Assembly (NCBI GenBank): GCA_949746285.1 | Contig: CATJZH010000135.1 | Span: 1 to 34,684 of the forward strand | Reading direction: 5' to 3' | Length of the DNA: 34,684 nucleotides | DNA from: an uncultured Clostridia bacterium | GTDB lineage: Bacteria > Bacillota > Clostridia > TANB77 > CAG-508 | Shown: positions 1,122 through 33,705 of the stretch, piece by piece | Position numbering within the stretch: position 1 is the stretch's first letter | Layout: each line of letters opens with the position of its first letter | The notes under the pieces: model-generated | The model's input: the letters and a program-made list of their open reading frames with translations, nothing else | The model's database searches: none | What the model was told of the DNA's origin: nothing | Translations under genes and position numbers: made by a program

Positions 1122-3263
1122 ATGAGAGTAATCAAAAGAGATGGAAGAAAAGTAGAATACAATAGTGATAAAATTGTTATAGCAATAAGTAATGCAAACA
1201 AAGAAGTTGGTGGTAAAGATAAAATTTCAAGATCATCAATAGAATTTATAACAAAATATATAGAAGGATTAAACAGACCAACAATGTCAGTTGAAGAAAT
1301 TCAAGATATTATAGAACGTAAATTAATGGAATTTGGGAAATTTACATTAGCAAAAAAATATATTTTATATAGAGATAAACATGCATTAATACGTGAAGCA
1401 AACTCTACTGATGAAAGTATATTAACATTAGTAAGAAATGCAAATAAAGAAACAATGGAAGAAAACAGTAACAAAAATGCAGTATTAGTTTCAACACAAA
1501 GAGATTTAATAGCAGGTGAATGTTCAAAAGATTTAGCAGATAGAATAATGTTACCAGACAGAATAGTAAAAGCACATAATGATGGAATATTACATTTTCA
1601 CGATAAAGATTATTTTGTTCAACCAATGCATAATTGTTGCTTAGTAAATATAGGAGATATGCTAGATAATGGAACAGTTATGAATGGAAAAATGATAGAA
1701 AGTCCTAAGAGTTTCCAAGTTGCTTGTACAGTTATGACACAAATAATTGCAGCAGTAGCAAGTAGCCAATATGGTGGACAATCTGTAGACATTCGTCATT
1801 TAGGAAAATATTTAAGAAAAACTTATGACAAAGTATACAAAAAAAGATTTTTAGGATATGTTGAAAAAGGATATTCTAAAGAAGAAGCAGAAGAAAGAGC
1901 AAAAGAAGATGCAGCAGAAAGAAGACAGGAAGATTTAGAAGCAGGTGTTCAAACAATTCAATATCAAATAAATACATTAATGACTACAAATGGTCAAAGT
2001 CCTTTTGTTACAATATTTATGTATTTAGATAAAGATGATGAGTATATCGAAGAAAATGCAATGATTATAGAAGAAATTCTAAAACAAAGATATGAAGGAA
2101 TAAAAAATGATAAAGGTGTATATATAACACCAGCATTTCCAAAATTAATATATGTTTTAGATGAACATAACTGTTTAAAAGGTGGAAAATATGATTATCT
2201 AACAAAATTAGCAGTAAAATGTTCTTCAAAAAGATTATATCCAGACTATATATCAGCGAAAATAATGAGAGAAAACTACGAAGGAAATGTATTTAGTCCT
2301 ATGGGATGTAGAAGTTTCTTATCTCCTTGGAAAAATGAAAAAGGAGAATATGTATTCGAATCAAGATTTAATCAAGGTGTTGTTAGTATAAACTTACCAC
2401 AAATAGGAATTATAGCTAATGGTGATGAAGATAGATTTTGGAAATTATTTGATGAAAGATTAGAACTATGCTATGATGCATTAATGTGCAGACATAATGC
2501 ATTACTTGGAACAATGTCAGATGCTTCACCAATTCATTGGCAATATGGAGCGATAGCAAGACTTGAAAAAGGAGAAAAAATAGATAAATTATTAAATAGT
2601 TGTTTCTCAACAATATCTTTAGGATATATAGGATTATATGAAGTAACTAAAATAATGAAAGGAGTTAGTCATACAGATCCTGTTGGAGAAGAATTTTCTT
2701 TAAGAGTAATGAGGCATTTAAGAGATACAGTAGACAAATGGAAAAAGGAAACAGGATTAGGATTTGCTTTATATGGTACACCTGCAGAAAGTTTATGTTA
2801 TAGATTTGCTAGAGTAGATAAAGAAAGATTTGGAGATATAGAAGATATAACAGATAAAGGATATTATACAAATTCATATCATGTAGATGTTAGAGAAAAA
2901 ATAACAGCATTTGATAAATTAAAATTTGAATCTAAATATCAACCAATATCTTCTGGAGGAGCTATTTCATATGTTGAAATACCAAATATGAAGAATAACT
3001 TAGAAGCATTAGAAGAAATAGTAAAATTTATATACGATAATATTCAATATGCAGAATTTAATACAAAATCAGATTATTGTCATTGTTGTGGATTTGATGG
3101 AGAAATTATTATAAACGAAAAGAATGAATGGGAATGTCCACAATGTGGTAATAAAGACCACAACAAAATGAATGTTACAAGAAGAACATGTGGTTACTTA
3201 GGAGAAAACTTCTGGAATGTAGGAAAAACAAAAGAAATAAAGTCTAGGGTATTACACATCTAG
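1122..3263 (+). CDS. nrdD: Anaerobic ribonucleoside-triphosphate reductase (class III RNR)
   Basis: 713 aa. N-terminal ATP-cone (MRVIKRDGRKVEYNSDKI). C-terminal Zn-ribbon cysteines (CHCCG...CPQCG). Glycyl-radical motif RRTCGYLG near the C-terminus. RBS ggggt lies upstream. Confidence 0.97.
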   Translation: MRVIKRDGRKVEYNSDKIVIAISNANKEVGGKDKISRSSIEFITKYIEGLNRPTMSVEEIQDIIERKLMEFGKFTLAKKYILYRDKHALIREANSTDESILTLVRNANKETMEENSNKNAVLVSTQRDLIAGECSKDLADRIMLPDRIVKAHNDGILHFHDKDYFVQPMHNCCLVNIGDMLDNGTVMNGKMIESPKSFQVACTVMTQIIAAVASSQYGGQSVDIRHLGKYLRKTYDKVYKKRFLGYVEKGYSKEEAEERAKEDAAERRQEDLEAGVQTIQYQINTLMTTNGQSPFVTIFMYLDKDDEYIEENAMIIEEILKQRYEGIKNDKGVYITPAFPKLIYVLDEHNCLKGGKYDYLTKLAVKCSSKRLYPDYISAKIMRENYEGNVFSPMGCRSFLSPWKNEKGEYVFESRFNQGVVSINLPQIGIIANGDEDRFWKLFDERLELCYDALMCRHNALLGTMSDASPIHWQYGAIARLEKGEKIDKLLNSCFSTISLGYIGLYEVTKIMKGVSHTDPVGEEFSLRVMRHLRDTVDKWKKETGLGFALYGTPAESLCYRFARVDKERFGDIEDITDKGYYTNSYHVDVREKITAFDKLKFESKYQPISSGGAISYVEIPNMKNNLEALEEIVKFIYDNIQYAEFNTKSDYCHCCGFDGEIIINEKNEWECPQCGNKDHNKMNVTRRTCGYLGENFWNVGKTKEIKSRVLHI

Positions 3264-5089: not shown

Positions 5090-5092
5090 GTA

Positions 5093-5122
5093 TTGACAAA
5101 TACGTGTTTAGTAATGTATAAT
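5093..5122 (+). promoter_or_regulatory. Sigma-A type promoter for rpsU
   Basis: TTGACA (5093-5098), 18-bp spacer, TATAAT (5117-5122), with TG immediately upstream. Confidence 0.55.
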
Positions 5123-5215
5123 ATTAAACAGTTAAGCGAAAATCTAAAGGATTATTACATAAAAAAATCAATCCCACAAGATGTTTTTTAGGCTTCGGAA
5201 GGAGGGGAAAAAATA

Positions 5216-5386
5216 ATGTCAGAAGTTAAAGTTAAAGATGGAAATATAGAAGATGCTCTAAAAAGATTCAAAAGACAATGTGCTAGAAATGGAGTATTGC
5301 AAGAAGTAAGAAAAAGAGAACATTATGAAAAACCTAGCGTTAAAAGAAAGAAAAAATCAGAGGCTGCAAGAAAAAGAAAATTTTAA
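5216..5386 (+). CDS. rpsU: 30S ribosomal protein S21
   Basis: Hand translation gives [56 protein letters not shown] (56 aa), the typical S21 sequence. Strong RBS ggaaggagggg lies upstream. It is absent from the ORF track because it is under 60 aa. Confidence 0.92.
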
Positions 5387-5410
5387 TATAAAAATAGGCT
5401 GAATGTCAAT

Positions 5411-5455
5411 AGCTGGAACAGAAAACTTTTAAAGTTTTTTGTCTCAGCTTTTTTT
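5411..5455 (+). terminator. Rho-independent terminator after rpsU
   Basis: 18-position stem (5411-5428 with 5432-5449), one mismatch and two G-U pairs, 3-nt loop, then a T-run 5450-5455. Confidence 0.7.
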
Positions 5456-5631
5456 AATGCAGCTTAGTTTTATGTTTTTTAAATGTAATATAAATTTAAT
5501 AGAAAAAATCAAAATATGATGTATAATATAAAGTGTATAATTATAGTGCAAAAACAAATATAAAAACTAAGTGCTATTTTAAAATGACTATACAAAATAC
5601 ATATAGAAATGAAATAGATAGGATTTATTAA

Positions 5632-7284
5632 ATGAAAAATAAAAAAAGCTCAAAAATAACTAAAAATAGAAAAATAGTTTTAAGTGTAATAATAACAATA
5701 GTATTTATTATATTATTAGTAATTACTTTAATTTTAATAAATAAACAGAACTTAAGTAGTGATGTAACCCCAGTAGAAACAGAACATAAAGAAGCAGTAA
5801 AACAAAAAAATCCAGAAAATTATACAGCAGTAATGAGTTTAGATAATATAGAAGTACCAGTGCCAACGGGATATACAGCGTCAAGTGTAGAAAGTGAAAG
5901 GTACGTAAATGGAATAAATGAAGTACATAAAGGGACAGCTAAAACACTTGCTTTGTCATCAGAAGGAGAATATGCATGGACACAAAATGAAGAAGATGGA
6001 GTATGGTCAAGTGGAAATTATAATGTAGCAAGTTCAAGTAGTATATTAGAAAGTGAAGAATTTGAAATAGGAGAAAATGGAGGACACATAAAAGTAAATT
6101 GGAGTGTATCGTCACAATATGGAAATGATGTATTATATGCAACAATAATAAGTGTAGAAACAGGCGAAGAAGAGAGATGTCCAAGTATAAGTAATACAAT
6201 ATATGGAACAAAATATGAAAATTTAGTATATGTAGATTATGATAAAGAACTAGAAGCAGGAAGATATAAAGTAATATTAACATATTCGAAAAATGGTTCA
6301 AGCAATAGTGGATTAGATAAAGGGTATGTAAAAAGTGTAGAAGTAGTAAATTATAGTGCAGATGGAACAGGAGAAGCGGAGGCAGTAGAACATAAATATG
6401 GAGGATTTGTAATATATGAAGGAGACGAAGAAGTAAATGAAAGTAATTTGCTAGAAGCTCAAAAGACAAGAAATCAATGGGTATGGGTACCAGTAAATGA
6501 CCCAAGTAGAATATATAGTGAAACAAATGGAGTAAAAACAGGAAAATATTATAGTAATTGGACATTAACAGGAAGAGGAAGTTCATCAACAGGAACTGAA
6601 CCAAAAGCTTTGACAGGTAGTTATGACACGCCACAGTATTTTTCAAGATATGGACTAGAAGGAATGACAAGAGAAAATTTTGACCAAGAGTTAAGAATAG
6701 AGTTTGAAGAAGCAATAGAAAGTATAAAAACCTATGGAGGATTTTATATAGGAAGATATGAAACAGGAAGTGTAAGTACAAATGAACCAGTAGTAAGAAA
6801 AATGAATACAGATATAGCAAGTCAAACATGGTATGCAATGTATGGAAAGATGGAAGTATTAGGAAGAAGTATGAGTGTAAAAGCAAATATGATATGGGGA
6901 TGTCTGTGGGATGAAGCTTTGCAGTGGTTAGTAGAGAGTGGAAGCAAAACATATGGAGAAATAAGAAATTCAACAAGTTGGGGAAATTATTATGATAGTA
7001 TATTTAAATATACAAATACAAATGGAACAGAAGCAACAAAAAGTATAGGAAGCACAAGAATCCCAAGTGGAAGTAGTGAATATACGAAAGCAAATAATGT
7101 GTATGACATGGCAGGAAATGTGTACGATAGGACATTAGAGGCCGACGGCACCAACTACCGTTATTCTCGCGGGGGCGGTTACAACAGCAACGGTTCTAAC
7201 GGCCTGGCGTACCACAGGTTCAGCAGCATTCCTTACAACAGCAGCAGCTTCCTCGGTTTTCGCGCGTACTTTTATATAAAATAG
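5632..7284 (+). CDS. Membrane-anchored extracellular protein with a C-terminal FGE-sulfatase (SUMF1/CLec-fold) domain; candidate DGR target protein
   Basis: 550 aa. N-terminal signal-anchor (IVLSVIITIVFIILLVITLILI). FGE-family motifs: GGFYIGRYE, WGCLWDEALQW, YDMAGNVYD (equivalent to GNVWEW), RGGGY (equivalent to RGGSW), and a terminal GFR. Confidence 0.8.
   Translation: MKNKKSSKITKNRKIVLSVIITIVFIILLVITLILINKQNLSSDVTPVETEHKEAVKQKNPENYTAVMSLDNIEVPVPTGYTASSVESERYVNGINEVHKGTAKTLALSSEGEYAWTQNEEDGVWSSGNYNVASSSSILESEEFEIGENGGHIKVNWSVSSQYGNDVLYATIISVETGEEERCPSISNTIYGTKYENLVYVDYDKELEAGRYKVILTYSKNGSSNSGLDKGYVKSVEVVNYSADGTGEAEAVEHKYGGFVIYEGDEEVNESNLLEAQKTRNQWVWVPVNDPSRIYSETNGVKTGKYYSNWTLTGRGSSSTGTEPKALTGSYDTPQYFSRYGLEGMTRENFDQELRIEFEEAIESIKTYGGFYIGRYETGSVSTNEPVVRKMNTDIASQTWYAMYGKMEVLGRSMSVKANMIWGCLWDEALQWLVESGSKTYGEIRNSTSWGNYYDSIFKYTNTNGTEATKSIGSTRIPSGSSEYTKANNVYDMAGNVYDRTLEADGTNYRYSRGGGYNSNGSNGLAYHRFSSIPYNSSSFLGFRAYFYIK
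7141..7269 (+). other. DGR variable-region-like cassette (43 codons) at the 3' end of the FGE-domain gene
   Basis: Composition switches abruptly to about 58% G+C (75/129 by hand count). There is no adenine at any third codon position. Adenines occur only at codon positions 1 and 2 (AAC x5, AGC x6, TAC x5, CAC, GAC, ACC). Scaffold residues use A-free codons. Confidence 0.65.
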
Positions 7285-7390
7285 GAATAAATACTAATTT
7301 AAACAAATAGAAATGAGTAGTAAAAAACTATGAAAAGGGCAGAGATTAGAGTCTATTTTATATATGTAGAACTGAAAATTGATAAAAATA

Positions 7391-7427
7391 AAAATCCTGA
7401 AATCTAAACTGAGTTTCAAGATTTTTT
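7391..7427. terminator. Bidirectional rho-independent terminator between convergent genes
   Basis: Stem atcctgaaa (7394-7402) with tttcaagat (7414-7422), one mismatch. An A-run lies on the left and a T-run (7422-7427) on the right. It sits between the stop at 7284 (+) and the stop at 7504 (-). Confidence 0.65.
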
Positions 7428-7503
7428 CATATTTGCATATGTCCAATTAGGGAGGATTGTTTTTGTCCATTTATATACGTATGTTTAAAAAATATTATTT
7501 ATT

Positions 7504-8253
7504 TTATCTTCCAATAAATAATTCAACAATAATTTTTCCATAAGCAATACTATCTACAACAGCAATTCCAGTATAATTGTAATCATTACTTAAAATATTT
7601 TCTTTGTGCGATTCAGAATTTAACCAGCTTTCGACAGCTGCGGGGATACTGCTATTGCCAGCTATATTTTCACTAGCAGTTTTATAGGAAATGTTGTTGC
7701 TTTTTAACATATCAAATGGAGTACCAAGAGTAGGTGAGTTGTGAGAAAAATAATTATTTTGGACTAAATCTTGAGCTTTTAACCTTGCAACATTTTGCAA
7801 ATTCTCATCAATTTCTAAACTAGATAAATTGTTTTTATTCCTTTCTGCATTTATTAAAGATAAAAGCTGTGATTCATCATCAGTTAGATTTTGATTTTTT
7901 GTTTCTTCAACAGTTTCTGTATTTGTAGCTGCGGCTTTTTGTTCAGAAGTAGGAGTTATATAACGTTCATGAGCTGCTCCAATCTTATTTTCTTCATTTT
8001 GTATTATATACCATTCTCCAATCTTTCCAAAAATTCTGACATATTCATTACGTTTTAGAAGATCGACTGATTTAAAATTTATTCCAGCACCACTTCTCAT
8101 ATTTAAGTAATCAGTATTAACAATTCCTAATGAAAAATCTAGTGTTTGATAGTCTTCCATACCAAAAGATTTGGCAAAAAGACTTACTAGTAAAATCAGT
8201 ATTATTGAAATTAATACTATTGTAATTTTATTTTCTAATATAAATTTTTTCAT
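7504..8253 (-). CDS. Secreted or membrane-anchored SH3 + CAP/SCP (YkwD-like) domain protein
   Basis: 249 aa. N-terminal TM segment. Bacterial SH3 motif (YLNMRSGAGINFKSVDLLKRNEYVRIFGKIGEWYII). C-terminal CAP/YkwD-like region (LINAERNKNNL...YFSHNSP...ENIA...WLNSESHKENIL). RBS aaggagg. Confidence 0.8.
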   Translation of the reverse strand: MKKFILENKITIVLISIILILLVSLFAKSFGMEDYQTLDFSLGIVNTDYLNMRSGAGINFKSVDLLKRNEYVRIFGKIGEWYIIQNEENKIGAAHERYITPTSEQKAAATNTETVEETKNQNLTDDESQLLSLINAERNKNNLSSLEIDENLQNVARLKAQDLVQNNYFSHNSPTLGTPFDMLKSNNISYKTASENIAGNSSIPAAVESWLNSESHKENILSNDYNYTGIAVVDSIAYGKIIVELFIGR

Positions 8254-8353
8254 AAAAAAACCTCCTTATTATTTTAAGGAGATTTTACCCAATTTTTAAT
8301 TTGATTAAACATAATTACTGTTTATTTAATAAATTTATTTAATTATAAAAAAA

Positions 8354-8540
8354 CTATCTATAAATATATATCATTAAATTTAAAATCTCGGCAATACTTC
8401 GCTTTCGATAAATTACAGTATTTTCAAATTATAGCGCCCTCAATATAAAATTGAGATTCCCTATAATTTGAAAAATGTAATTTTAATCTCAAGCTCAAGT
8501 GCATTCGATTTTAAATTTAATGATATATATTTATAGATAG
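8354..8540. repeat. 187-bp imperfect palindrome with perfect 34-bp terminal inverted repeats; probably a long structured RNA or terminator read on the - strand
   Basis: 8354-8387 (ctatctataaatatatatcattaaatttaaaatc) is the exact reverse complement of 8507-8540. The inner arms are homologous but diverged, with a second stem near 8409-8433/8461-8486 and an apical stem ctcaa/ttgag. On the - strand the hairpin is followed by T7 (A-run 8347-8353 on +). Confidence 0.7.
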
Positions 8541-8564
8541 ATAAACTATATTAAAATAAATTTA

Positions 8565-9779
8565 TTAAAAAACAAAAAGATTACGTATAATCAAATTAAA
8601 ATAATATAAGGAGGTGTTTTTAATTAATTCATTATCAAGAGTAATATCAGCTGTGCAAAGTAAAGAGTTTCCATTATAAAGTTCCAAAGTACCGATTTTG
8701 CTACCTTGATTAGTAGAAGGGGACATAGAAGAAACAGTATAAATTTTGGTGTTTAACTCTAAAGCATCATTAATAGGAAGCGGAAATTTGTAATTTTCAA
8801 GTTGCTGCAATTTTAAAATAGGTGAGGTTCTAGTTTTTTTTAGTAAACAATTTTTTTCGAATAAAGGTAAATATTGATTAAATGAATCGTTTATAGTAGA
8901 TGAAACATCAATATAATTATAGGTATTTAAAATATAATTTATTAGTGAAGCACTATCTTTTGTTCTAATACTTTTTGTATTTGCACCTAAAACAACAACG
9001 ATTATGTCTAAAGAATCCCTTTTACAAGCAGAAACCAGACATCTACCAGCTTCAAAAGTAAAACCTGTTTTTACTCCATAGATGCCTTCTAGATTTCCTA
9101 ATAATTCATTAGTATTTGAAATAGTTCTATTTCCACCATTAAAAGAAATAGTATGAGTTTTTGTGGAAACTATATTTCTAAATTGTTCATTTTTTAATGC
9201 ATAATCTGTTAAAATAGCAAGTTCATATGCAGTTGTGTAATGATTTTCGTCATCAAGTCCATGAGGAGTAACAAAATTTGTATTATTTAAGCCTAATTCT
9301 TTTGCTTTTTGATTCATTAAAACAGAAAAGTTTTCAACAGTTCCTGATAAATGTTCGGCTAGGCTTATAGCACAGTCATTTCCTGATCTGAGCATAAGAC
9401 CATAAAGTAAATCTAAAACAGAAATTTTCATATCAGTAACTAATCCTAAAGTAGAACCATGAACAGAAGCAGCTTTTTTTGAAACAGTAACTATGTCATC
9501 TAAAGAACAATTTTCTAAAATAATAATGCAAGTCATAATTTTTGTAGTTGAAGCCATAGCTACTTTTTCATATGCATTTTTTTCATAAAGAACAGAAAGA
9601 GTTTTCCTGTCAAGTACAACAATATTTTTAGAGTTAGTTATAGGTTCGTTAGTAGAATTTGAAGATGCTTGAAAAGAAGCATAATCATCAATTCCTTCTA
9701 AATCTAAGCTTTCATCTGCAAAAGATGTGCTATTTAATATAAAAATAAAAATTAAAAATAAAGACAATATTTTTTTCAT
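8565..9779 (-). CDS. D-alanyl-D-alanine carboxypeptidase (S11 family, low-molecular-weight PBP)
   Basis: 404 aa. Signal peptide. SxxK (ASTTK), SxN (RSGND) and KTG (VKTGFT) motifs in the correct order, plus a C-terminal PBP5-like domain. RBS aggag. Confidence 0.9.
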   Translation of the reverse strand: MKKILSLFLIFIFILNSTSFADESLDLEGIDDYASFQASSNSTNEPITNSKNIVVLDRKTLSVLYEKNAYEKVAMASTTKIMTCIIILENCSLDDIVTVSKKAASVHGSTLGLVTDMKISVLDLLYGLMLRSGNDCAISLAEHLSGTVENFSVLMNQKAKELGLNNTNFVTPHGLDDENHYTTAYELAILTDYALKNEQFRNIVSTKTHTISFNGGNRTISNTNELLGNLEGIYGVKTGFTFEAGRCLVSACKRDSLDIIVVVLGANTKSIRTKDSASLINYILNTYNYIDVSSTINDSFNQYLPLFEKNCLLKKTRTSPILKLQQLENYKFPLPINDALELNTKIYTVSSMSPSTNQGSKIGTLELYNGNSLLCTADITLDNELIKNTSLYYFNLIIRNLFVF

Positions 9780-9886
9780 AATAATTTTCTCCTAAATAAA
9801 TTTATGAACAAAAATGACTATATATTCAAAATAAAAAATAAAAAAATAGAAAATAAAGGAAAAGCCCTAAAAATTCACATAAATAC

Positions 9887-10057: not shown

Positions 10058-13000
10058 ATGTTAAAGAAAAGAATAGTAAAAATAGCTATTGTATTAGCAT
10101 GTGTATTAACATTATTAACACCATATACAACTGTATTTGCTATGTTAACTCAAGCAGATACTACAGCTAATTTACAATCTGTTATTATGCACGAAGGAGG
10201 AGAAGAAGCTAGTGGAACATTAACGGATGAACAAAAACAGCTTTATGATGAAAATCCACATGGTTATGAAGTTGGAGATACTCTAATTTGTAAAATAATA
10301 GAAGAAGGCGACATGAATTATGAAAATGCATTCTATTGTTTAAATGCTATGAAATCATTCCCAGGAGCAACTTCAACAGGATTTACAAGTTTAGAGTACA
10401 AAAATGTAGCAGATTTTAAAGATTCAACAAATTCAGAAGTAAAATCTTTACATTTAAGTACAGCATATTCAGAAGATAGTGCACTTTGGACAGCTAATTA
10501 TAAAGCTTTAAATTGGATATTTGAAAATTCTTATTTAAGAAAACAAACACCTGAGCAAAAAGATGATTATTTAGCAAAAGCTTTTGCAGATTATGAATAT
10601 GAGTTAGATGCAGTAAAAGCATATCTAACAGATGACGATATAGATGTTGTTCAACAATATGCTATTTGGTATTTTACAAATAGAGATACAGAAAAATATA
10701 ATGTAACAACATTACCAGCAGTTACACTAAGTGGATTTAGTGAAGATGGATCAACATACAAAGGCTCATACCGTGATGTAACAGGAAGTAATTTACGTCA
10801 AGAAATGGCTAATCATTTATATCAATATTTAATAAATGAAGCAGCAAAAGGAACAGAAACTGTTCAAAATACATATCCATCATTAGGAAGAAATGATGCA
10901 GCTTTAACAGAAAATGAAAATTACTATATAGTAGGACCATTTAATATAAAAGCAGGAACAGCACCATCAACAGAGTATAGTATAAAATTATTAGATGCTG
11001 CAAATAAAGAAATAGCTAGAAAAGATTATGAAATATTGTTAGAAGGTGAATCAAATTTCACAAATAAAAATGTAAATGAAATATTTGATACAAATTATTA
11101 CATATATCTACCAAAAACAAATGAAGTAATAACAACTATTAATTTAGAATTAAATTATTCAACATTTGAAACACAAGGTTCAGTATGGAAAAATAAAATA
11201 ACAAATGATGAAGGCGTAGAAGTATATCAACCGCTTATATTATTAACAAGAGGAGAAACACCACATAAAGTAAATGTACCAGTTGAAATAAAAAGAACAT
11301 CACCAGACTTAGCTTTAAGAAAATATATAGCAGCAGTAACAAAAGCAAATGGTACTACTCAAAAATTTGATAGAGCACCAAAAGTAGATATTTCAAAATT
11401 AAAAGATGGAACAAGTGAAACAGCAGAATATAAACATGCAAAAGATCCTGTATCAGTATCAGTAGGAGATAAAATTATATATGAAATAAGAGTATATAAT
11501 GAAGGTGATGTTGATGCAAAGGAAACAGTAGTAATAGACGCTTTACCAAAAGGATTAGAATATGTAGAAGATAGTGAAATAAATGCAACATATGGATGGA
11601 AAAAAGTTTCAGAAGGTTCAAATGCTACAGTATATTCAACAGATTATTTAAAAGATACAACAATAGGAGCATTTGACAAAGAAAATAGTACATCTTTAGA
11701 AAGTGCATATGTTCAAATAGAATGTAAAATAGCTGATAATGCAAAACCATCAGCAGTATTAACAAATGTAGCTGAAATAGGAGAAGATGGAATTGCAGAT
11801 AGAGATTCTACTCCAAGCAATAATGATTATACACAAAAAGATAATGATTCATCAAACTACACAGGAGATAAAGATAATAAATCAGATTTAACAGATAGTG
11901 ATTATTTCTATAAAGGTAGAGAAGATGATGATGATTTTGAAAAAGTAAAAGTAGAAGGAAAAGCTTTTGACTTAAGCTTACAAAAATTTATAACAAAGAT
12001 AAATGGAAATGCACCATCTAAAAGTAGAGAGCCTGTTGTAGATGTTTCAAAATTAAAAGATGGAACAAGTACAGATGCAACATACACTACTACAAAATCA
12101 GCACTTTCTGTAGAACAAGGAGACGTAGTAATATATACAGTAAGAGTGTATAATGAAGGAGACTTATCAGGATATGCTGAAGAAGTAGCAGATTATATAC
12201 CAGAGGGATTAGGATTTTTAGTAAATCATACAACAAATGTAGATAATTACTGGTCAATTCCAGAAAATGCAAAAACAGTAAAATTAAGCACAATATCAAA
12301 TGGAACAAAGAATTTAGAAACAGATGACTTTACTGATGTAAAGAATTTATCAGATGTAGATGTTGTATTAGGAAGTGCAAAATTAACATCAACAAAATTA
12401 AAATCTTCACCAACAGATACAAAAAATCTAATAAAAGCATTTGATAAAGAAAAATCAGAAACATTAGATTATAAAGATATACAAGTAGCTTGTATAGTAC
12501 TTACAAATGTATCAACAGGAACAAATTTAAGAAATATAGCAGAAATAACAAAAGACTCAGATGAAAACAGAGAAGAAGTAACAGATAGAGATTCAACACC
12601 AGATACAGTTGATCCAAATAGATATCCAGGGGATGATGAAAATCAAGATGATCATGACTATGAAAATTTAACACCACAAGAATTTGATTTAAGTCTTCAA
12701 AAATTCATAACTGGAGTAAATGACAAAAAAGTTGATGGAAGAGAACCCAAAGTATCTGTAAATTCAGAAGGAAAAGTACAGTTTTCTTCAACAGCATCAC
12801 CATTACAAGTAGAAAATAACGATATAATTACTTATACAATAAGAGTATATAATGAAGGAAATATAGCAGGATATGCTAAAGAAGTAGCAGATGATTTACC
12901 AGAAGGAATAGAATTTTTACCAGATAACGATACAAACAAAAAATATGGTTGGAAGTTATATGATAAAGACGGAAATGAAACATCTGATGTAAGTCAAGCA

Positions 13001-13897
13001 GTATCTGTAAAAACAGATTATTTATCTAAAGAAAAATCTGAAGAAAGAAAAGATGATTGTTTATTAAAAGGGTTTGATTCCAAAACATCAAAAACACCAG
13101 ACTTTAGAGATGTTCAAATAGCATTTAAAGTTGTAGAAAATAAAGTAAAAGGAAAAGACAGAATAGTTAAAAACATAGCAGAAATAACAGATGATGAGGA
13201 TGAAAATGGAAACCCAATAGATGATATAGATTCAACACCAGGAAATAATAAACCAGGTGAAGATGATATAGATGATGAACAAATATATGTAAAATATTTT
13301 GATTTAGCATTAAAAAAGGATTTAATAAAAATAATTATAAATGAAAATGGAACAACAAGGGAAATATCACTTGGAGAAAATGATCCATTACAAAAAGTAG
13401 ATATACACAGAAAGAAACTAAAGTCAACAACAGTTAAATTTGTTTATAATATAACAGTTACAAACGAAGGTGAAATAGCAGGAAGTGCTACAGAAATTAC
13501 AGACTATATACCAGAAGGACTAGAATTTATAGCAGAAGAAAATAGTAGTTGGACACAAGTTTCTACAAATGTAATTACAACAAATGCCTTATCAAATACT
13601 CGTTTAGAACCAGGTCAATCAGCGTCTGTTCAAGTGGTATTAAAATGGATAAATTCTGAAAATAATTTAGGACTTAAAGTTAATACTGCAGAAATAAGTA
13701 AAGATCAAAATGATAGCAATACACCAGATATAGACTCAACACCAAACAATAAAGTCCCTGGAGAAGATGATATAGATACAGCAGAGGTATTTTTAGGAAT
13801 TTCAACAGGTAGAGCACCAACATATATAGCACTTACAACAACAGTACTTGCAATAATGACAACAGGAGTAATATTAATTAAGAAATATGTTTTATAA
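10058..13897 (+). CDS. Surface adhesin: signal peptide, thioester (TED/TQXA-like) domain, four DUF11-like repeats, C-terminal hydrophobic anchor
   Basis: 1279 aa. Signal peptide ends around TTVFA. FYCLNAMKSFPG (Cys94) and VVQQYAIWYFT (Gln200) match the Cys and Gln motifs of thioester domains. Four repeats begin DL(A/S)L(R/Q/K)K, each with a (Y/V)NEG core, LP(K/E)GL(E/G)(Y/F), and D(R/I)DSTP...EDD tails. The C-terminus is a TM helix plus KKYVL. Confidence 0.75.
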   Translation: MLKKRIVKIAIVLACVLTLLTPYTTVFAMLTQADTTANLQSVIMHEGGEEASGTLTDEQKQLYDENPHGYEVGDTLICKIIEEGDMNYENAFYCLNAMKSFPGATSTGFTSLEYKNVADFKDSTNSEVKSLHLSTAYSEDSALWTANYKALNWIFENSYLRKQTPEQKDDYLAKAFADYEYELDAVKAYLTDDDIDVVQQYAIWYFTNRDTEKYNVTTLPAVTLSGFSEDGSTYKGSYRDVTGSNLRQEMANHLYQYLINEAAKGTETVQNTYPSLGRNDAALTENENYYIVGPFNIKAGTAPSTEYSIKLLDAANKEIARKDYEILLEGESNFTNKNVNEIFDTNYYIYLPKTNEVITTINLELNYSTFETQGSVWKNKITNDEGVEVYQPLILLTRGETPHKVNVPVEIKRTSPDLALRKYIAAVTKANGTTQKFDRAPKVDISKLKDGTSETAEYKHAKDPVSVSVGDKIIYEIRVYNEGDVDAKETVVIDALPKGLEYVEDSEINATYGWKKVSEGSNATVYSTDYLKDTTIGAFDKENSTSLESAYVQIECKIADNAKPSAVLTNVAEIGEDGIADRDSTPSNNDYTQKDNDSSNYTGDKDNKSDLTDSDYFYKGREDDDDFEKVKVEGKAFDLSLQKFITKINGNAPSKSREPVVDVSKLKDGTSTDATYTTTKSALSVEQGDVVIYTVRVYNEGDLSGYAEEVADYIPEGLGFLVNHTTNVDNYWSIPENAKTVKLSTISNGTKNLETDDFTDVKNLSDVDVVLGSAKLTSTKLKSSPTDTKNLIKAFDKEKSETLDYKDIQVACIVLTNVSTGTNLRNIAEITKDSDENREEVTDRDSTPDTVDPNRYPGDDENQDDHDYENLTPQEFDLSLQKFITGVNDKKVDGREPKVSVNSEGKVQFSSTASPLQVENNDIITYTIRVYNEGNIAGYAKEVADDLPEGIEFLPDNDTNKKYGWKLYDKDGNETSDVSQAVSVKTDYLSKEKSEERKDDCLLKGFDSKTSKTPDFRDVQIAFKVVENKVKGKDRIVKNIAEITDDEDENGNPIDDIDSTPGNNKPGEDDIDDEQIYVKYFDLALKKDLIKIIINENGTTREISLGENDPLQKVDIHRKKLKSTTVKFVYNITVTNEGEIAGSATEITDYIPEGLEFIAEENSSWTQVSTNVITTNALSNTRLEPGQSASVQVVLKWINSENNLGLKVNTAEISKDQNDSNTPDIDSTPNNKVPGEDDIDTAEVFLGISTGRAPTYIALTTTVLAIMTTGVILIKKYVL
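11306..13798 (+). repeat. Four tandem protein-level repeats (~200-225 aa, DUF11/conserved-repeat-domain-like) within the adhesin gene
   Basis: The repeat starts DLALRKY, FDLSLQKF, FDLSLQKF and FDLALKK each recur with the motif order given for the adhesin CDS. The DNA copies are diverged. Confidence 0.7.
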
Positions 13898-18969: not shown

Positions 18970-21900
18970 ATGGAAAAGAAGTTTATGATTAATTTTAGTA
19001 GGAAGCAAAAAGTAAGTATTTTTATTATATTTACAATTATAGTTTTATTCATAATAGGAGTTTTAAACTATAAAGATAATAAAACCAATAGTATTGCTGC
19101 AAATAGTGAAATGGCTAGAACCTTAACATATGCAGAAGCTCAAGATGGAGATGAAGATATTAAAAATACTGAAAATGTGAAATTTGATGCGTTCTTTTTG
19201 CAGGACTTAGATGGAGATGGGAATGCAGAAAAAATAAGAGGTACTTGCAAAGAGGTAGGAAAAGAAGATACTTTATATATGGAACTAAAAGTACAGACAG
19301 AAGGATATTTAGAAAATGCTCGTATTGAAATAAATGGAAAAAACTTTTATTTGCAAACTTCTTTACCAAAAGATTCTGAACTTAAATATAATTATATAGG
19401 TAATAATATAAAAGAGCTAGAATTTAATACAATAAATAGTGGTAGTCAAAAAGTAATAACAGGAATTGTACGAAGTGGAGATTATAATTATGATTCAAGA
19501 ATTGCAGATGCAATAGGAAATAATATAAATAAGTATAGTAAAGTAAATGATGTAAAATTAACAGGGACTTATGTAGGTCAAGATGGAGCTAGAACTTATA
19601 TAGAGAAAAATGTAGAATTTAATGTAGATTGGTATGGAACAATAGATACCAATATTTATTCAACAAGTCAAAATAGAAATATAACTGAAATGATAAATAA
19701 AGAAGAAGGAACAATAAGTTTTAATTTCGATATATATACTGAAGATAGAGAAGAAAAGTTGTTATTAAAATCTAATCATATAGAAGGAGAGATACCAGAG
19801 ATAAATGGATATTTGCCAATAGAGGTAAAGTATTTGGGTAAAAATGATAGATTTAATTATGATGAAACAACTAGAAAATTTATAATAGATAGAGAAACAG
19901 AAATTATACATGATGAAGTACTAAAAACAACTATGGATTCAAGAAACAAGTATGAGATGAAAATAGTGTATTCAATAGAAGCATATGAGAGTGTTGGAAA
20001 AGAATCAATTCAGTTGCAAATACCAGTAAAAACATACTATAAAGGCTATAACAATCCTAATATAGAATTTAATAACCCATACATAAGTAACATCGAAAGT
20101 TCGACAATTGTATTGGATTGTAATGTGCCACCTACTGTGACAGATCAAACATATAGAACCAACTTTAATGTGAAAGTAGGAAGATATATTTGGAATGATA
20201 TGTCATATTTAGTATTAAAAGATAAACCATTAAATTTATATAATGGAAATAGTGAAGAAGAAAATGATGATACATATAAAGTAATGTGGAAAGTTTTTAT
20301 TGGAACTGAAGAAAAACTAGATTCAATTATAATGAAAGAAACAGCAAATGGAGAGGAAAAACAGTCAGACAAATTTATAAAAAAAGATAGTACAATAGAA
20401 AGTATGGAAGATGTGACATCAAATGTAGGAATATATTTTTATGGGGCTGATACTATATTAGGAGATGATGGATGGATAAAAATATATGATGACGAAACTG
20501 ATACTTTATTAGAAACATTTACAAAAGATACTTGGAACAAATATAAAGAAGAAAACCCATACAGATATGAATTACCAGTAAAACATATAAGAATTGAAAC
20601 AAGTAAGGCTATAAAAAACGAGAGTTATCTAACAGTATATAATATAAAAGAATTAGATGATGAAAAAATAATTCAAAAATATGAAAAGAACGAATTTGAT
20701 GGATTACAACATATAAGCTCAAGATTAGTTGGATATGTGGGAAATACAGAAATTGAAAAAGTTTCTCATACAGCGAAATATGTGGCTCCAGAATCAGAAG
20801 CGACAGTATTTATTAGTAGAGATAAATTATCAACTCAAGAATCAGAAAAGAATATTGATATATATATACAAACTATTGCAGATGATAATAAAAATGAAGT
20901 AAGATGGAAAAATGGTTCATTTTTATTAAGACTACCAGAAGAACTTATAGATGTAAAATTAAATGAAATTTCAATAAATAATACAAATGTTAGTTTAGAA
21001 AGCTATGAATTAGTAAAGGAAAATGGACAGTATTTTATAAAAATATTGACAGAAAATGAGACTCCTCAAACGTACACAATAAGGATAAATTTAGATTTAA
21101 CTGCCAACCCAAGAATGTCAACAGCAACAAGAAATATAGAATTATATGCAACAAATGAAAAAAATAGTGATTATTATTATAAAACATCAGATATTTATGA
21201 TGTAAATAATAACTTAAATACAGAAGAGCAAGTATATTATAATATAGTTAGTATAAGTATGATATCACCAAATTCATTATTAACTACACAGATAGCTAGT
21301 AATTATGATGAGAATGGAAGTATTGCGTTAGCACCACAGATAATAGAATTAGAATATAGATATGATTTAGAAAATGAAAAAACAGTAGATATAGGAATAG
21401 ATGTAATAAATAATTATAGTAATACAATAAGTGAAGTATCAATAATTGGAAAGATACCTTTTGAAGGTAATACTTTTGTATTAAGTAAAAATAATTTAAA
21501 TTCTGAATTTAGTACAAGAATGACAGAAGATGGATTAAGAATACCAGAAGCAATGAAAGATGAAATAAAAGTATACTATTCAGAAAATGAAAATCCAGAT
21601 AAAGATTTAAGCAAAGCTGAGAATGGCTGGAAGACAAAAGATGAAGTGAAGAATTGGGATACAATAAAGAGCTTTTTTATAGATTTCCAAAATTACATAA
21701 TGGATATAGGAGAAAAGGTTGAATTCGGATATACTATAAAGATACCAAAGAAGACTGAATTAAACAAAACATCATATAGCCATCATGGAATAGAGTTTTG
21801 CTTAGATACAGAACAGGGAAAATATAGAACTAGTATAGAACCAAACAAATTAGGAATTAGATTAACAAAAAAATATAATTTTGAATTACAAAAATACCAA

Positions 21901-24900
21901 GAAAATAAAGAAAAATTAATATCAAAAGTAAAATATTCTATAAAAGAAATAAGTATAGATAAAGATGGAAATGAAAAACAAGAAGTAATAAAAACAGATG
22001 TAACAAATTCAGAAGGAAAAATACAATTAAGTAATTTAGCAGTAGAGAAAATATATGAAGTAAAAGAAATAAAAGCGCCAGAGGACTATGAATTAAATTC
22101 AGATGCTATCAGGTTTATTTGTCATATGAATGAAGATGGAAGCATAACTATCGAAAAGTTAAATGGCGAAACTCGAGAAGAAATTGCTATAGAAAAAGAT
22201 GAAGTTAATAATTATAAAGTAGTATTAAAATTAGAAGATAAAGTGAAAGCTAGATTAAAAATTACGAAAAAAGAATTAGGAACAGAAAATAGAGTGGAAA
22301 AGGCTTACTATAAAGTAACTGGAGAAGGACTACCACAAGGTGGAAAAATTTTATCTACTAATAAAGATGGAGAACTTACTTTTGTAGGACTTAGTATAGG
22401 TGAGGAATATGTATTGCAAGAAGTAAAGGTAAGTGGATATTATTTGTCAAGTCCAGTTACATTTAAAATACTAAAACAAGACGAAAGTTATGAAGTTGAA
22501 ATACTAGATGGAGAGGTACTCAAAGAAAGTTTTTCAGAAGAAGATAATATACCAGTTTTAAATATTGTATTAGAAGATGAAAAAATACCAACATATAATT
22601 TAGAAGTCACAAAAATAAAAAGAATAGAAGAGACAACATTAAGCAAGACAGTAGAAGAAAATTCTTCTACTGAAGAAACAACATATTTAGAGGGAGCAAA
22701 ATTTAAATTATATAAAGGAAAACAAGAAATAGGCGAATATGTTACAGATAGTACAGGTAAGATAACAATTACAGGATTATATTTATATGAAGAAGGACGA
22801 AATATAAATCAAACATATACTTTAAAAGAAGTATCAGCACCACAAGGATATACTAAAGTAAAAGATATAACATTTAGAGTGCAAAATAATAATGGAAGCT
22901 TACAATATATAGAAGAACTAAGTTCAGGACAAACAGAAAAAGCATATACAGTAGAGGAAAATACTGTAAAACTTATAATAGAAGATACACCAGCGTTTAA
23001 ATTAGTAAAAAAAGATTTTGAGACAAAAATGCCAGTAGCAAATGTAAAATTTGCAATTTATAACGTAGATGTTGAAGAAGTACCAGCAAAAAATAACAAA
23101 AATGAAATTTTAGGAACGAAAGAGATTGTAAACGGAAAAGAGTACTATACACTAACAACAAATGAAAATGGAGAAATAATAGCAGAGTTACCAGAAGGTA
23201 TATATAAAGCTGTTGAAATAGAAGCTCCTGAGAAATATGATGTTACAGATACGATTCAATATTTTGGAATAGGTACTTCAATAGAAGGAAACAAGTCATT
23301 AGAGAAAATATGGTCAAAAGAAATATTAACTAATTCTGGTGATCAAATAGTATCAGCGAAAGAAACATCTGATGGAGGAATTATAATAGCAGGAAACTTT
23401 AGGAGTAATATAATAGATTTAGGAAATGATGTTATATTAACTAAAAAAGTTGCCACATATTATACTGCTGGAATGGTAATTAAATATAGTCAAGACAAAG
23501 AAGTTGAATGGGCTAAAGCAATAGAAAGTGATTCTAATGTTTATATAAATTCTGTAAATGAAACAACAGAGGGGAATATATTAGTAGGTGGATCTTTTAA
23601 TGGCAGAGGTATGATAGCAGAATATAGTAGCAAAGGTGAAGAAATTTGGGGTAACTTAACTATAGGAATAGATATAAGTTTTATACAGGGAACTGCTGAT
23701 AAAGGAATAGTAATAGCAGGAGAACTAAAAGACTATTGTAAAGATTTTGGAATAGAACCAATAGGTAAAAATAATGGATTTATAGCTAAATATGATAACA
23801 GTAAAGAGTTACAATGGGCAAAAGTAGTAGGAGGAAGTAAATCAGATTATATTAATTCACTATCAGAAACATCTGATGGAGGAATATTAGTAGGAGGATA
23901 TTTCACATCAAGTGAGATAGAATTAGAAGAAAATGTAGTTTTAGAAAATACAAGTTCTTGTAATGGAATGATAATAAAATATAATACTTTAGGAAGTGTA
24001 GATTGGACCAAAACAATTGGAGGAAGCGATACACGTATAAAATCGGTACAAGAGACAAATGATAATGGGTATATAGTAGCAGGATATTTTCGAAGCCAGA
24101 CTTTGGATTTAGGCAATGGTACAATTTTGGAAAAGGTAAGCGGATATAATACTGAAATGGTAATAAAATATGATATGGCTTTAAATGTAGAGTGGGCAAA
24201 AACAGAGGGTGAAGGAATTAATATTTTTATAGAAGAAGCAGATGATAATGGATTTGTATTATATAATGGAAGTATAATAAAATATAATAGCATAGGAGAA
24301 ATTGAATGGAAAAAGGAAATAAAAAGTAATGTAAATTCATTATTGGAGTTAACATCTTCTGAATGTTTAATTATAGAAGATAAAGCAATATCTAAATATA
24401 GTTTTTGTGATATACCAGAAGTAAAAGTTGAAAGAAGAGAGAATGCAGATATTTCAATAGAATCTATGATAAACAATGGTATTAGCGGATATATAGCGGG
24501 AGGATACTTTGAAGATACAATTGATTTAGGCAATGGAATAATATTAGAGTCAAATGGAGGATTAGATGCAGCGATAATTAAGTACTCTAGTATGGGAAAT
24601 GTAGAATGGGCAAGAACAATTGGAGGAGAAGAAGTAGAACAAATTAATTATATAACATCAACAAGTGACAATGGTGTAATAGCTGTAGGATATTTTACAA
24701 GTTTATCAATTGATTTAGGAAATAATATATTTTTAGATTTAACGGATGATGATTTAACAAGAATGGTTATAAAATTTAATAGTAATGGAGAAACAGAATG
24801 GGCAAAGGCAATAGGAAATAGTTGGAGTGACAAAATTGACTCAGTATTAGAAACAAAAGATGGAGGAATACTGGTATCAGGACAGTTCTATGCAGATCAA

Positions 24901-27900
24901 ATTGATTTAGAAGATGGTATAGTATTAGAAAGAAAAAATGAAGAAGCAGGAATGATAATTAAGTATGATGCCAAAGGTAAGTTAGAATGGGCAAATACAG
25001 TGGAAATAAGTTCTCGAAATGGAATAGATACTATTATTGAGACAAAAGATGGAGGTTATGCAATTACAGGAAATTTTTCACACGGAACATATGACTTAGG
25101 AAATGGAGTAGTATTAAATTGTGCAGGTGCTAGAGCAGGAATGTTAATAAAATGTGATTCAAATGGAAATATACAATGGGCAAAAGCTATAGGAGGAGAG
25201 AAAGAAAATGAACTATTATCAATAGTAGAAACGTCAGATGGAGGTTATATAGTATCTGGATATTTAGGTACGGGAAAAATAGACTTTGGAAATGGAATAG
25301 TTCTAAATGGATCAAATAATTATTATTCAGGAATGCTAATAAAATTTAGTAATTTAGGAGAAGTTGAATGGGCAAGAAATAGTGAAGAGGTAAATTCAAT
25401 ATTGCAAGATTCAGATGGAGGAATTGTAGTATCAACATTTTCTGGTTTATTTAAATATAGTACTGAAGGTAAATTAGAATGGTCAAACGATTTTGAAACA
25501 ACTTCAGCAATAAGAATATTTGATGGAACTTATTTAGTAAGTAATTATGGAGAAGTATTAAGAGTAAGAGCAGGTATAGGGATTTCAGAAACTCAAGAAC
25601 TAATAGTAGAGAATAAAAGAAAAGAATTTGCAATTTCAACAGGAGTAAAAAAGATAGGCGAAACAAAAGGGGGAGACATTTCAGGAGAGAACTTAAAGGT
25701 ATATGAAAGAGTAAAATATGGTGATAACAGTAAAAAAGAAATAATAATGACACCAGATAAAGGATATGAAATAATTGCAATTACAGTAAATGGAGAAAAA
25801 CACGTATTTACTCAAAATGAAGATGGAACATATACAATGCCAGTTATTCAAAACATAACAGAAGACCAATATATTGAAGTAAGTTATGGTATAAAATACG
25901 AAGATATTATTGATGACAAAAATAATAATATAATAGTTATAAATAAAATAGATAGTAAAACCAAAGAACCAATACCAGAAGTAACTTTTAAAATTGAAGA
26001 AGTTAAAAAAAGAGAAGGACTAGAAAATGCAATTGGAAATCCAGTAGGTAATGGAAGAGGTGTCCAAGGTGTTGATTATAAAAACCCAGAAAATATTGAA
26101 GAGACTATGGTACAAAATGGAGATTATTATTTTATAGAAAATAATGGGACTTACATACCAAATAACTCAGATACACAAGGTACTGTAGCAAACTCATATA
26201 TTCCAATAGATTTACGTAATAAAGATAAAGAATATGCAGTTGTTGTAAATGGAGAAATGGAATGTGATGGAAATGCTTTATTATATGCATCTATATCAGG
26301 AGATACAAATGCACCAGGATGGGGAAATATTATGGATGTGCGATATTCTGCTGCAGCACAAAATTATTACATATATTTACCACCAGGAAATTTATACTAT
26401 TTACATTTAGGATATGAAAATAGTACTAATAATTTAAGTAATGTAAAAATAAATAGTATACAGGTTTGTCCAGTAAAAGAAATTGCATATGAGTTTATAG
26501 AAAAAGATGGAAAATATGAACCAAACAATAAAGGAATTGATGATACTTGTGCAAATTCTTATATACCAATTGATTTATCAGGTTGTACAGGAAAATATAA
26601 TTTAACAATAAATGCTCAAGTATCAAGTGATTTAGATGGAGATATCGGTTATATGAGTATAACTGAAAGTCCATATAGGATTGATTATAGAAATGCAGAA
26701 ATATGTTTATCTGGAAATGTTGAAGCGAAAGATTATAATTTTGAACTTTCAGGAGGAAAAATATATTATTTACAGTTAGGATATTATAAAAATTCGTATT
26801 ATTCTTGGGGGGATGATTCTTTAATAATAAATAGTTTAAATCTAACTCCAATAGATTCTAGTGAATATAGCATAGAGGTTCAAACAAATAGTGAAGGAAA
26901 AGCAATTGCACAGATACCTTTTGGAACATATAATATAAAAGAAATTGCAGCTCCTGAAAAATATTTGCTAGCAGATGAAATTATGACAATAGACTTTGCA
27001 CTAGATGGGCAAAAAGAGTTTACAATTGAAAATACAGTAGCATCAGAAGTAATAGCTCATCATTATAAAGCAAACAGAAATGCAGAAGGAAATTATGAAT
27101 ATACAGAAGAAAAAATTGTCGAAGACAATATAACTAGAGGTAAGGTTGGAGAAAAATATATAACAGCACCAAAACTAGACTTAGAAAAATATGAATTAAT
27201 AAAAGATGAAAATGGAAATTATGATATTCCAAAAAATGCAACAGGAACATATGGAGAAGATACAATAGAAGTAAACTATTATTATGCAGAAAAAGAGATT
27301 CCACTTACTGTATATCATTATATTGAAGGAACCAATATAAAAGTTCCATTAATGGATGGAACTGAAGCTGAAGAAGAGGTAAGCTACGGAAAAGAAGGAG
27401 AAGAATATGTAACAAATGGTCTTGCTAATGATAGGTTATCTAATGAATATGAATTAGTGGAAGAGGCAGAAAATAAATCAGGAGTATATAAAGTAACAGA
27501 AGTATTTGTAACATATTATTACAAAAAGATTGAAAGAAACATTACTATAGTTAAATATGCAGAAGATGGACAAACACCACTTCAAGGAACCAAATTTAAA
27601 ATAAAACCCAAAAATCAAGAAGAAGCTACAGAAGAAACATATGTAACAGATGTACAAGGAAAAATAAGAATTACTTTAGAAGCTGGAGAATATGAACTAA
27701 TAGAAGTAGAACCTTCAGAAGGATACATGCTTCCAGAAAATCCAATAACAAATATAAATGTAACAAGAGAAACAGAAGATGAAACAAAAATAACATTAAC
27801 AAATGAAAGAGCAAGAGGACAAGTTATAGTACATTATTATTTAGAAGGTACAACTGAAAAAATAATTGAAGATGAAATAAAAACTGGTGTAATAGGAGAA

Positions 27901-30929: not shown

Positions 30930-30947
30930 AGAAAAGAGGTGAATATA

Positions 30948-33638: not shown

Positions 33639-33667
33639 TTTACAAATAAAAATTTTATTGATAAAAT
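33639..33667 (+). promoter_or_regulatory. Promoter for the thioredoxin-fold gene
   Basis: TTTACA (33639-33644), 17-bp spacer, TAAAAT (33662-33667), with an extended -10 TG at 33659-33660. Confidence 0.5.
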
Positions 33668-33705
33668 ATCAAAATAGTAGAAATAATAGTATAAAGGAGA
33701 AAATA

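Follow-up and report, generated by a model that had tools for sequence, protein, structure and literature searches.

A 34,684-nt stretch of DNA from an uncultured Clostridia bacterium (contig CATJZH010000135.1 of GenBank assembly GCA_949746285.1, positions 1 to 34,684 of the forward strand; hereafter the window) contains a gene, here called T1, that ends in a GC-rich block of about 130 nt. This block is very probably the variable region (VR) of a diversity-generating retroelement (DGR) target gene. A preliminary description, made from the letters of the window alone, had proposed a probable DGR VR at this place, and the proposal is now supported by a template repeat (TR), an Avd gene and a reverse transcriptase (RT) on related contigs, by mismatches to the TR that are specific to adenines, and by variation between strains.

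The open reading frame (ORF) of T1 encodes 550 aa and runs from 5632 to 7284 on the + strand, where its stop codon ends. In frame with it, the 129-nt block at 7141-7269 has a G+C content of 58.1% (75/129), vs. 27.1% for the whole window; the jump in GC from surroundings below 30% was thus confirmed by recounting. A sliding 129-nt scan of the 34.7 kb exceeded 42% GC only at the block, with a peak of 58.9% at 7138. Codon endings are equally distinctive. None of the 43 codons of the block ends in A (28 end in C, 10 in T, and 5 in G), while 290 of the 503 upstream codons of T1 are A-ending, as are 21 of the nearest 44; at the upstream frequency, the probability of 43 codons without a single A-ending one is ~9e-17. 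The 27 adenines of the block are distributed over codon positions 1, 2, and 3 as 14, 13, and 0, and every count previously given for the A-free third positions and for the confinement of adenines to positions 1 and 2 was reproduced. Moreover, synonymous codons switch within the gene, from gga, aga, and tta upstream to ggc, cgc, and ctc in the block.

A non-coding near-repeat of the block, which the preliminary description had anticipated, was found on related contigs of the same strain-level population, beside an Avd gene and an RT. This TR is 132 nt long and lies at L004:584-715 and L005:7626-7757 (L004:584-738 and L005:7626-7780 including flank); it starts with AGGCCAACGGCACCAACAACCGTTATTCTCGCGGGGGCGATTAC and ends with GCGCGTACT. 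The TR used for all comparisons with the window therefore comes from related contigs, outside the window itself. It aligns without gaps to positions 7139-7270 (+ strand), and we re-set the limits of the VR to these 132 nt, from which the extent first proposed deviates by no more than 2 nt. The window VR differs from the TR at 18 positions, 17 of which are among the 45 TR adenines and 1 among the 87 non-adenines (Fisher p = 1.4e-8), as had been expected of adenine-specific change. In six other VR alleles there are 17-22 adenine-site mismatches to the TR and 0-3 elsewhere, and adenine specificity across all VR alleles has p-values from 1e-8 to 1e-10. The TR is identical in 12/12 copies from 10 assemblies, and the VR occurs in seven cognate alleles. 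Over six alleles, 36/45 adenine sites are substituted at least once, with A at 159, G at 67, T at 39, and C at 5 of the bases at these sites. As judged from the alignments, this mismatch pattern is the signature of adenine-specific mutagenic retrohoming. Changes from A to C are rare among the alleles (5/111 substitutions).

The make-up of the TR accounts for the make-up of the block. Read in the VR frame, the 45 TR adenines fall at codon positions 1, 2, and 3 in a ratio of 21 / 24 / 0, and the codons include 17 AAC, 1 AAT, and a few with a single A. Because all adenines are at positions 1 and 2, 26 codons can vary under adenine mutagenesis without any stop codon being reachable (0), which corresponds to ~10^25.9 (~10^26) protein variants. 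The block is GC-rich and free of A at third positions because the composition of the TR has been rewritten repeatedly into an AT-rich genome. The sole non-adenine mismatch is at 7205 (+ strand), where the TR has C and the window has T, resulting in a change of Pro525 to Leu. This T is private to the window allele, with C in all other copies of that allele, and it would most simply be an ordinary point mutation that arose after the last retrohoming. A further observation concerns codon TTT (Phe543, 7258-7259), near the VR 3′ end: alleles L006 and L004a have T-to-A changes at TR thymines here (ATT, TAT), which are among the few non-adenine mismatches seen.

Homology between TR and VR begins with AGGCC at 7139 and ends after the GC-rich CTCGGTTTTCGCGCGTACT at 7270. 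This 20-nt segment (7251-7270) is identical in VR and TR, the last substituted TR adenine being at 7250, and from 7271 onward the two flanks are only partly alike. By analogy with the prototype element, a conserved segment with differing flanks resembles the initiation of mutagenic homing (IMH) site and its counterpart IMH*, and we consider 7251-7293 (+ strand), as delimited by the VR/TR alignment, a putative IMH-like homing boundary. An AT-only palindrome, TTTTATATAAAA, lies at 7270-7281, and no terminator-like site was found in 5090-7520.

The TR belongs to a cassette found on two pairs of contigs (L004/L030 and L005/L029), in which the order on one strand is TR, a MutS-like (MSL) gene, avd, RT, a small ORF, and paralogous targets. 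The architecture was taken from L005/L029 because L004 contains a mosaic gene (see below). The MSL protein has 130 aa and is MutS_I-like (PF01624, 1e-6). The Avd protein, with 122 aa, matches bAvd (PF22296, 2e-18) and PHROG 3206, "Avd protein of DGR" (2e-19); its match to NF033474 (DivGenRetAVD) has an E-value of 1.5e-19 and a score of 70.2 bits, below NCBI's cut-off of 80 bits. Some 0.9 kb downstream of the TR is the gene for the RT, which has 336 aa and a PF00078 domain. Over the full length, the best relative of this RT in the PDB is 8ub7 (E = 1e-40), a chain that matches brt of Bordetella phage BPP-1 with 100% identity (tblastn), while group II intron RTs reach 4e-17; the fit to 8ub7 is ~24 orders of magnitude better than that to group II intron or retron RTs. 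Furthermore, its motif IGNYTSQ aligns with IGSLTSQ of Brt (common pattern IGxxxSQ). These sequence relationships place the cassette RT in the DGR subclass. Hence, the prediction that a DGR-type RT and an Avd-like gene would be found next to the TR held for both, with the MSL gene in addition.

Directly downstream of the RT is a small ORF (L004:2624-2896 and L039:11032-11280) encoding 82-95 aa, with 90-95 aa on L004/L030 and L005/L029. Its identity is 46% (E = 4e-23) across two lineages of the cassette, the RTs of which share 78% identity, and it has no match in Pfam, NCBIfam, or PHROG. Its position and conservation make it a candidate extra DGR accessory gene. The paralogous targets on the cassette contigs (clusters P0002 and P0003) are ~80% identical to the T1 product, and between them sit AAA_14/DUF4143 genes that are split into two ORFs (L004:4928-6281 and 8452-9805). 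Giant surface proteins of 3858 aa and >2747 aa also flank the cassette locus.

Comparison of strains revealed where T1 varies. Contig L006, which represents another strain with the same locus and the same CAP flank, shows 54 differences from the window over an alignment of 3840 nt. Of these differences, 33 are inside the 132-nt VR, 29 of them at TR-adenine sites, and divergence outside the VR is 0.57% over 3708 nt (Fisher p = 2e-36 for VR enrichment). At the protein level, P0125, a member of the same 90% identity cluster, has 24 residue differences from the window protein, with 20 in residues 504-546. The hypervariability at AAC/AGC/TAC-type codons that the preliminary description had proposed to look for agrees with the concentration of strain differences in the block, where they fall at AAC-type codons. 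Conversely, the exact window allele is present in five other ENA samples (BATT21-1; assemblies ERZ28569391, ERZ28569702, ERZ28569458, ERZ28572554, and ERZ28573050), and an allele one base off it was found in JGI and ENA samples. The VR is hypervariable between lineages and stable within a lineage, and diversification at T1 is infrequent. One further allele, on contig L007 (L007:11508-11639), departs from window 7139-7270 at 5 positions, of which 7198, 7243, 7247, and 7249 are TR-adenine sites, and has its remaining substitutions in common with the window allele. It is unlike the product of an independent whole-VR replacement and is suggestive of cDNA integration over part of the VR, or of point mutations under selection.

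The paralogous genes T2 and T3 have with T1 a common repeat unit, which corresponds to 5464-7384 (+ strand) when L004, L005, and L029 are compared with the window by blastn. Copies of this unit are 85-88% identical; it extends from the region upstream of the gene, through the gene itself, and ~100 nt into the 3′ flank. In L005, T2 is a decayed target (L005:14866-16521, with its VR at L005:15029-15160; = L029:16376). Compared with the TR, its VR is mismatched at 21 adenine sites and 25 non-adenine sites, its GC content is down to 45%, and its GC-rich 3′ end has mutated to GCGCATATC. From its sequence, T2 of L005 seems to be no longer maintained by the DGR, and it provides a picture of what an unmaintained VR may become. 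Contig L004 (ERZ14864040 NODE_1643) has the layout T3-AAA-T2-AAA-T1 and was considered as proof that T1 can lie beside the cassette. We rejected it for this purpose, as its third gene (L004:10001-11650) is a T2/T1 mosaic: over its first 560 nt it is 100% identical to T2, and the remainder, with the CAP flank, is ~99.9% identical to the window. The T2 and T3 VRs are identical to each other in L004 and different in L005. The layout of L004 would result from chimeric assembly over the repeated genes, or else from a real recombination event that joined the cassette and T1 loci.

The protein encoded by T1 (5632-7284, + strand) has >1500 homologues, and an AlphaFold model of its full length has a pLDDT of 86.6 and a pTM of 0.83, with pLDDT values of 79-92 within the VR. 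At the N-terminus the model has a hydrophobic helix, KIVLSVIITIVFIILLVITLILI (residues ~11-41; 5662-5754, + strand), a predicted membrane anchor that makes a surface topology plausible. Next comes a β-sandwich of the jelly-roll type, MAM/CBM-like by Foldseek (residues ~60-255; 5809-6396, + strand). Full-length Foldseek matches were MAM, CBM6/29/35, Eph ligand-binding, and gingipain adhesin domains, with E-values from 3e-6 to 6e-4; as the N-terminal jelly-roll dominates these matches, the full-length search was dropped as a guide to the VR domain, and the C-terminal domain was re-modelled alone for a fold search of the VR-bearing part. This C-terminal α/β domain, which carries the VR at its own C-terminus, is a divergent FGE-sulfatase-like, C-type-lectin-fold (CLec) domain according to the family profile and Foldseek (residues 256-550; 6397-7281, + strand).

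The preliminary description had placed the VR-bearing domain in the FGE-sulfatase/C-type-lectin class, which is supported at the level of the family, the scores of the window protein being weak. PF03781 is matched by 21/40 family members that are 40-82% identical to the window protein (best E = 3e-6), while the window T1 protein alone has no match in Pfam, including PF03781, or NCBIfam. Searched against the PDB, the family profile matched SUMF2 (1y4j, 5e-5) and, with E-values of 0.03-0.4, FGE, PorK, TvpA (2y3c, 0.04), and PvdO; all of these matches cover the last 60 residues. Foldseek with the isolated domain returned ToxD, TaqVP (5vf4), EgtB/OvoA/OvsA, PvdO, PorK, and TvpA, with a best E-value of 0.013 and TM-scores of ~0.35, and the top matches are nearly all FGE-type folds. 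Taken together, these results agree with one another in pointing to an FGE-type C-type-lectin fold, but the support that they give is weak.

A number of results weigh against the reading of the block as a DGR VR. The TR, RT, and Avd gene are absent from the 34.7-kb window in repeat, 3-mismatch pattern, and protein-family searches; a TR within the window was looked for by both repeat and pattern search, and that placement was rejected. Longer related contigs likewise have no TR, RT, or Avd gene in the 10 kb on either side of the window, and no cassette within 10 kb to the left or ~37 kb to the right of T1. Records of an RT of ≥90% identity are lacking for NCBI and JGI sources, as they are for the five BATT21-1 samples with the window-type allele. 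That the window's own genome also carries the cassette is something we infer from its co-occurrence with the T1 locus in related samples. In addition, the recurrence of the window allele in many samples implies slow turnover at the T1 locus, no significant hairpin was detected downstream of the VR (fold of 7245-7400, z = 0.16 vs. shuffled), and scores of the window protein itself against the FGE/CLec class are weak.

Attempts to find the cassette elsewhere gave little. The 19-mer CGTTATTCTCGCGGGGGCG, which is common to the TR and all VRs, had 1 match in representative genomes, in an unrelated GC-rich gene of another Clostridia metagenome-assembled genome (MAG), and 15 matches in JGI metagenome contigs, all at 53-64% GC and with no further similarity. 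We attribute the matches in both collections to chance; the JGI contig collection is evidently without contigs carrying the window-type gene. P0166 (78% RT), considered as the window lineage's own cassette, was also discarded, as it comes from a different organism and a different context; RT variants P0285 and P0288 were discarded too, as both belong to the study series of L004 and not to samples of the window strain.

Three samples (ERZ14864040, ERZ14865206, and ERZ14864010) contain contigs that match the window with 99.94-99.97% identity over 12.2 kb, and the cassette contig is present in the same three. Both have the same G+C, and their SPAdes coverages are matched (6.12 vs. 6.10, 10.70 vs. 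11.01, and 6.43 vs. 6.75 for window-type vs. cassette contig). In ERZ14864010, T1 (P0122) is on an 82-kb window-type contig and the cassette on a separate 20-kb contig. The window VR itself is undecayed, with 1/87 non-adenine mismatches, 58% GC, and an intact GC-rich 3′ end. Most likely, the cassette acts on T1 in trans, T1 being a non-adjacent target.

Several of these points would also fit an orphan or fossil VR, written by a DGR in an ancestor of a genome that has since lost its cassette or holds an inactive one, so that the block is now an ordinary, slowly drifting coding segment. The lack of a cassette in or near the window, the failure to record an RT of ≥90% identity from sources and samples holding the window allele, the persistence of that allele across the five BATT21-1 samples with a near-identical one elsewhere, and the private non-adenine substitution at 7205 would all be accommodated in this way, and T2 of L005 demonstrates that targets of the element can lose maintenance. 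We nevertheless regard a fossil as unlikely. The single non-adenine mismatch among 87 positions is within the 0.6-1% divergence between strains, and neither the GC content nor the 3′ end of the VR has eroded. In three samples the cassette accompanies contigs ~99.95% identical to the window, at matched coverage, and at the same locus other strains have different alleles that are changed at TR adenines. The absence of an RT is weak evidence, because the look-ups were by exact sequence and displayed a subset of contigs.

It is very unlikely that the differences between T1 alleles arose mainly by recombination or gene conversion among the VRs of T1, T2, and T3, or among strains, with the DGR acting on its adjacent targets and T1 borrowing their sequence. 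Such exchange would be favored by paralogues that are 85-88% identical with identical 3′ flanks; the T2/T1 mosaic on L004 could be an instance of it, and the L007 allele, only 4 TR-adenine sites away from the window allele with its other substitutions in common, could be another. However, the L006 allele of T1 equals no T2 or T3 allele seen, T1 and the adjacent target have exactly the same boundaries of TR homology and the same 3′ end, the mosaic may be an assembly artefact, and remote targets are documented for cellular DGRs (PMC5758913). A block of non-DGR origin, such as a horizontally acquired GC-rich segment or one shaped by selection for a Gly/Asn/Ser/Tyr/Arg-rich peptide, has only the composition of the block in its favor and is effectively refuted by the invariant non-coding copy that adjoins an Avd gene and a Brt-like RT, by adenine-specific mismatches with p of 1e-8 to 1e-10 in every allele, and by the A-free third positions and the synonymous codon switch, which amino-acid selection cannot explain.

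If T1 is diversified as a remote target, the established DGR pathway would apply as follows. The TR would be transcribed, and a complex of RT and Avd would copy it into cDNA, misincorporating specifically opposite template adenines. The cDNA would then replace the VR, guided by the common GC-rich 3′ end, and the resulting variants would be displayed at the ligand-binding face of the FGE-type CLec domain on a membrane-anchored surface protein. A more elaborate version is doubtful, in which this lineage possesses a four-gene core (MSL, Avd, RT, and an undescribed factor of 82-95 aa) and rewrites its remote target by infrequent or partial retrohoming; if it were true, differences of the L007 type, at 4 sites, would point to patch-wise integration of cDNA and not to replacement of the whole VR.

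DGRs with MSL accessory genes ("Architecture D"), cassettes with several targets, and remote targets of non-phage DGRs have been described before (Wu et al., 2018; PMC5758913), and the DGR of Legionella pneumophila also carries an MSL gene (PMC5758913). Like the Architecture D elements, the present one combines a small MutS-domain-I-like gene with avd and a DGR RT in a cellular setting, and has multiple and non-adjacent targets, a C-terminal VR, and AAC-rich TR codons. It differs from them in its gene order (TR-MSL-avd-RT-small ORF-targets), its low-GC (27%) uncultured Clostridia-like host, the extra ORF of 82-95 aa after the RT, and a target that joins a transmembrane (TM) anchor, a jelly-roll, and a divergent FGE-like domain; the comparison with the 16 MSL DGRs of PMC5758913 is made at the level of their description.

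In Treponema denticola, the VR of TvpA (2y3c) is located, as in T1, at the C-terminal end of an FGE-type CLec surface protein, and the cassette likewise serves remote targets (PMC5758913). In the Treponema element, the accessory gene is of the HRDC type (PMC5758913), whereas here MSL and Avd are present. Similarity between TvpA and T1 is weak (profile E = 0.04; Foldseek E = 2.7, TM 0.35), and the T1 protein adds the membrane-anchor helix and the β-sandwich domain. Structures of the FGE-type CLec variable proteins TvpA and TaqVP have been solved. TaqVP of Thermus aquaticus (5vf4), the variable protein of a DGR and likewise assigned to the C-type-lectin fold, was the second-best Foldseek match of the VR domain (E = 0.047, probability 0.75), albeit with 12-15% identity, a TM-score of ~0.3, and a different organism and domain context.

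With the BPP-1 DGR (Mtd, Avd, Brt), the present element has in common adenine-specific transfer from TR to VR, an Avd and an RT, a C-terminal VR close to the stop codon, and an invariant GC-rich 3′ end. Unlike BPP-1, it is chromosomal and not phage-borne, its TR is upstream of the accessory genes and not between avd and brt, and it includes an extra MSL gene and small ORF and several paralogous targets, one of them non-adjacent. Moreover, no clear hairpin was found downstream of the VR, and the target is of the FGE-type CLec class, not the Mtd type.

Overall, the mechanism is that of the known DGR framework; nothing departs from it, and the T1 VR reveals no new mechanism. What is new is incremental, namely the Clostridia-like host, the architecture of the target, and the conserved small ORF after the RT. 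The case does demonstrate that, in an AT-rich genome, raw sequence alone can be enough to recognise a DGR VR whose cassette is located on a different contig. It also draws attention to a hypervariable, membrane-anchored lectin-like protein of an organism known only from metagenome assemblies, a candidate adaptive binder of host, phage, or microbial ligands. Furthermore, maintained and decayed VRs offer a natural contrast from which the frequency of remote-target rewriting might be estimated.

The surroundings of T1 are those of an ordinary chromosome of a low-GC Firmicute. The gene order in the window is nrdD, nrdG, prs, T1, a CAP/SH3 protein, a D-Ala-D-Ala carboxypeptidase, a 1279-aa thioester/CLIPPER adhesin, a GGDEF regulator, TrkH, TrkA, a 3918-aa surface protein, an AAA_14/DUF4143 ATPase, and a metallo-β-lactamase-fold protein. 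The 1279-aa protein (10058-13897) has a thioester domain and DUF11/CLIPPER repeats, and the 3918-aa protein (18970-30726) is of the SpaA/MucBP type with many internal repeats. The AAA_14/DUF4143 gene (30939-32228) is intact and has no blastp similarity to the copies on the cassette contigs at E ≤ 1e-5. For a TTG-start ORF at 33658-34254 a look-up found no record, probably owing to a wrongly chosen start codon.

Between the genes for the CAP/SH3 protein (7504-8253, − strand) and the carboxypeptidase (8565-9779, − strand) lies a very long, near-perfect inverted repeat in the intergenic stretch 8300-8600, with arms at 8322-8387 and 8507-8572 that weaker flanking pairs extend. Its fold is one hairpin of ~300 nt with an energy of −109 kcal/mol, vs. 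−43 for shuffled sequences (z = −14.9), and it may represent a MITE-like element, or else a large structure with a regulatory or terminator role; an Rfam scan of the whole window gave no matches. Finally, nrdD (1122-3263) is intact in the window, with 713 aa, and is split into ORFs of 174 and 534 aa on JGI contig L001 (L001:5510-7632) by a frameshift or sequencing error.

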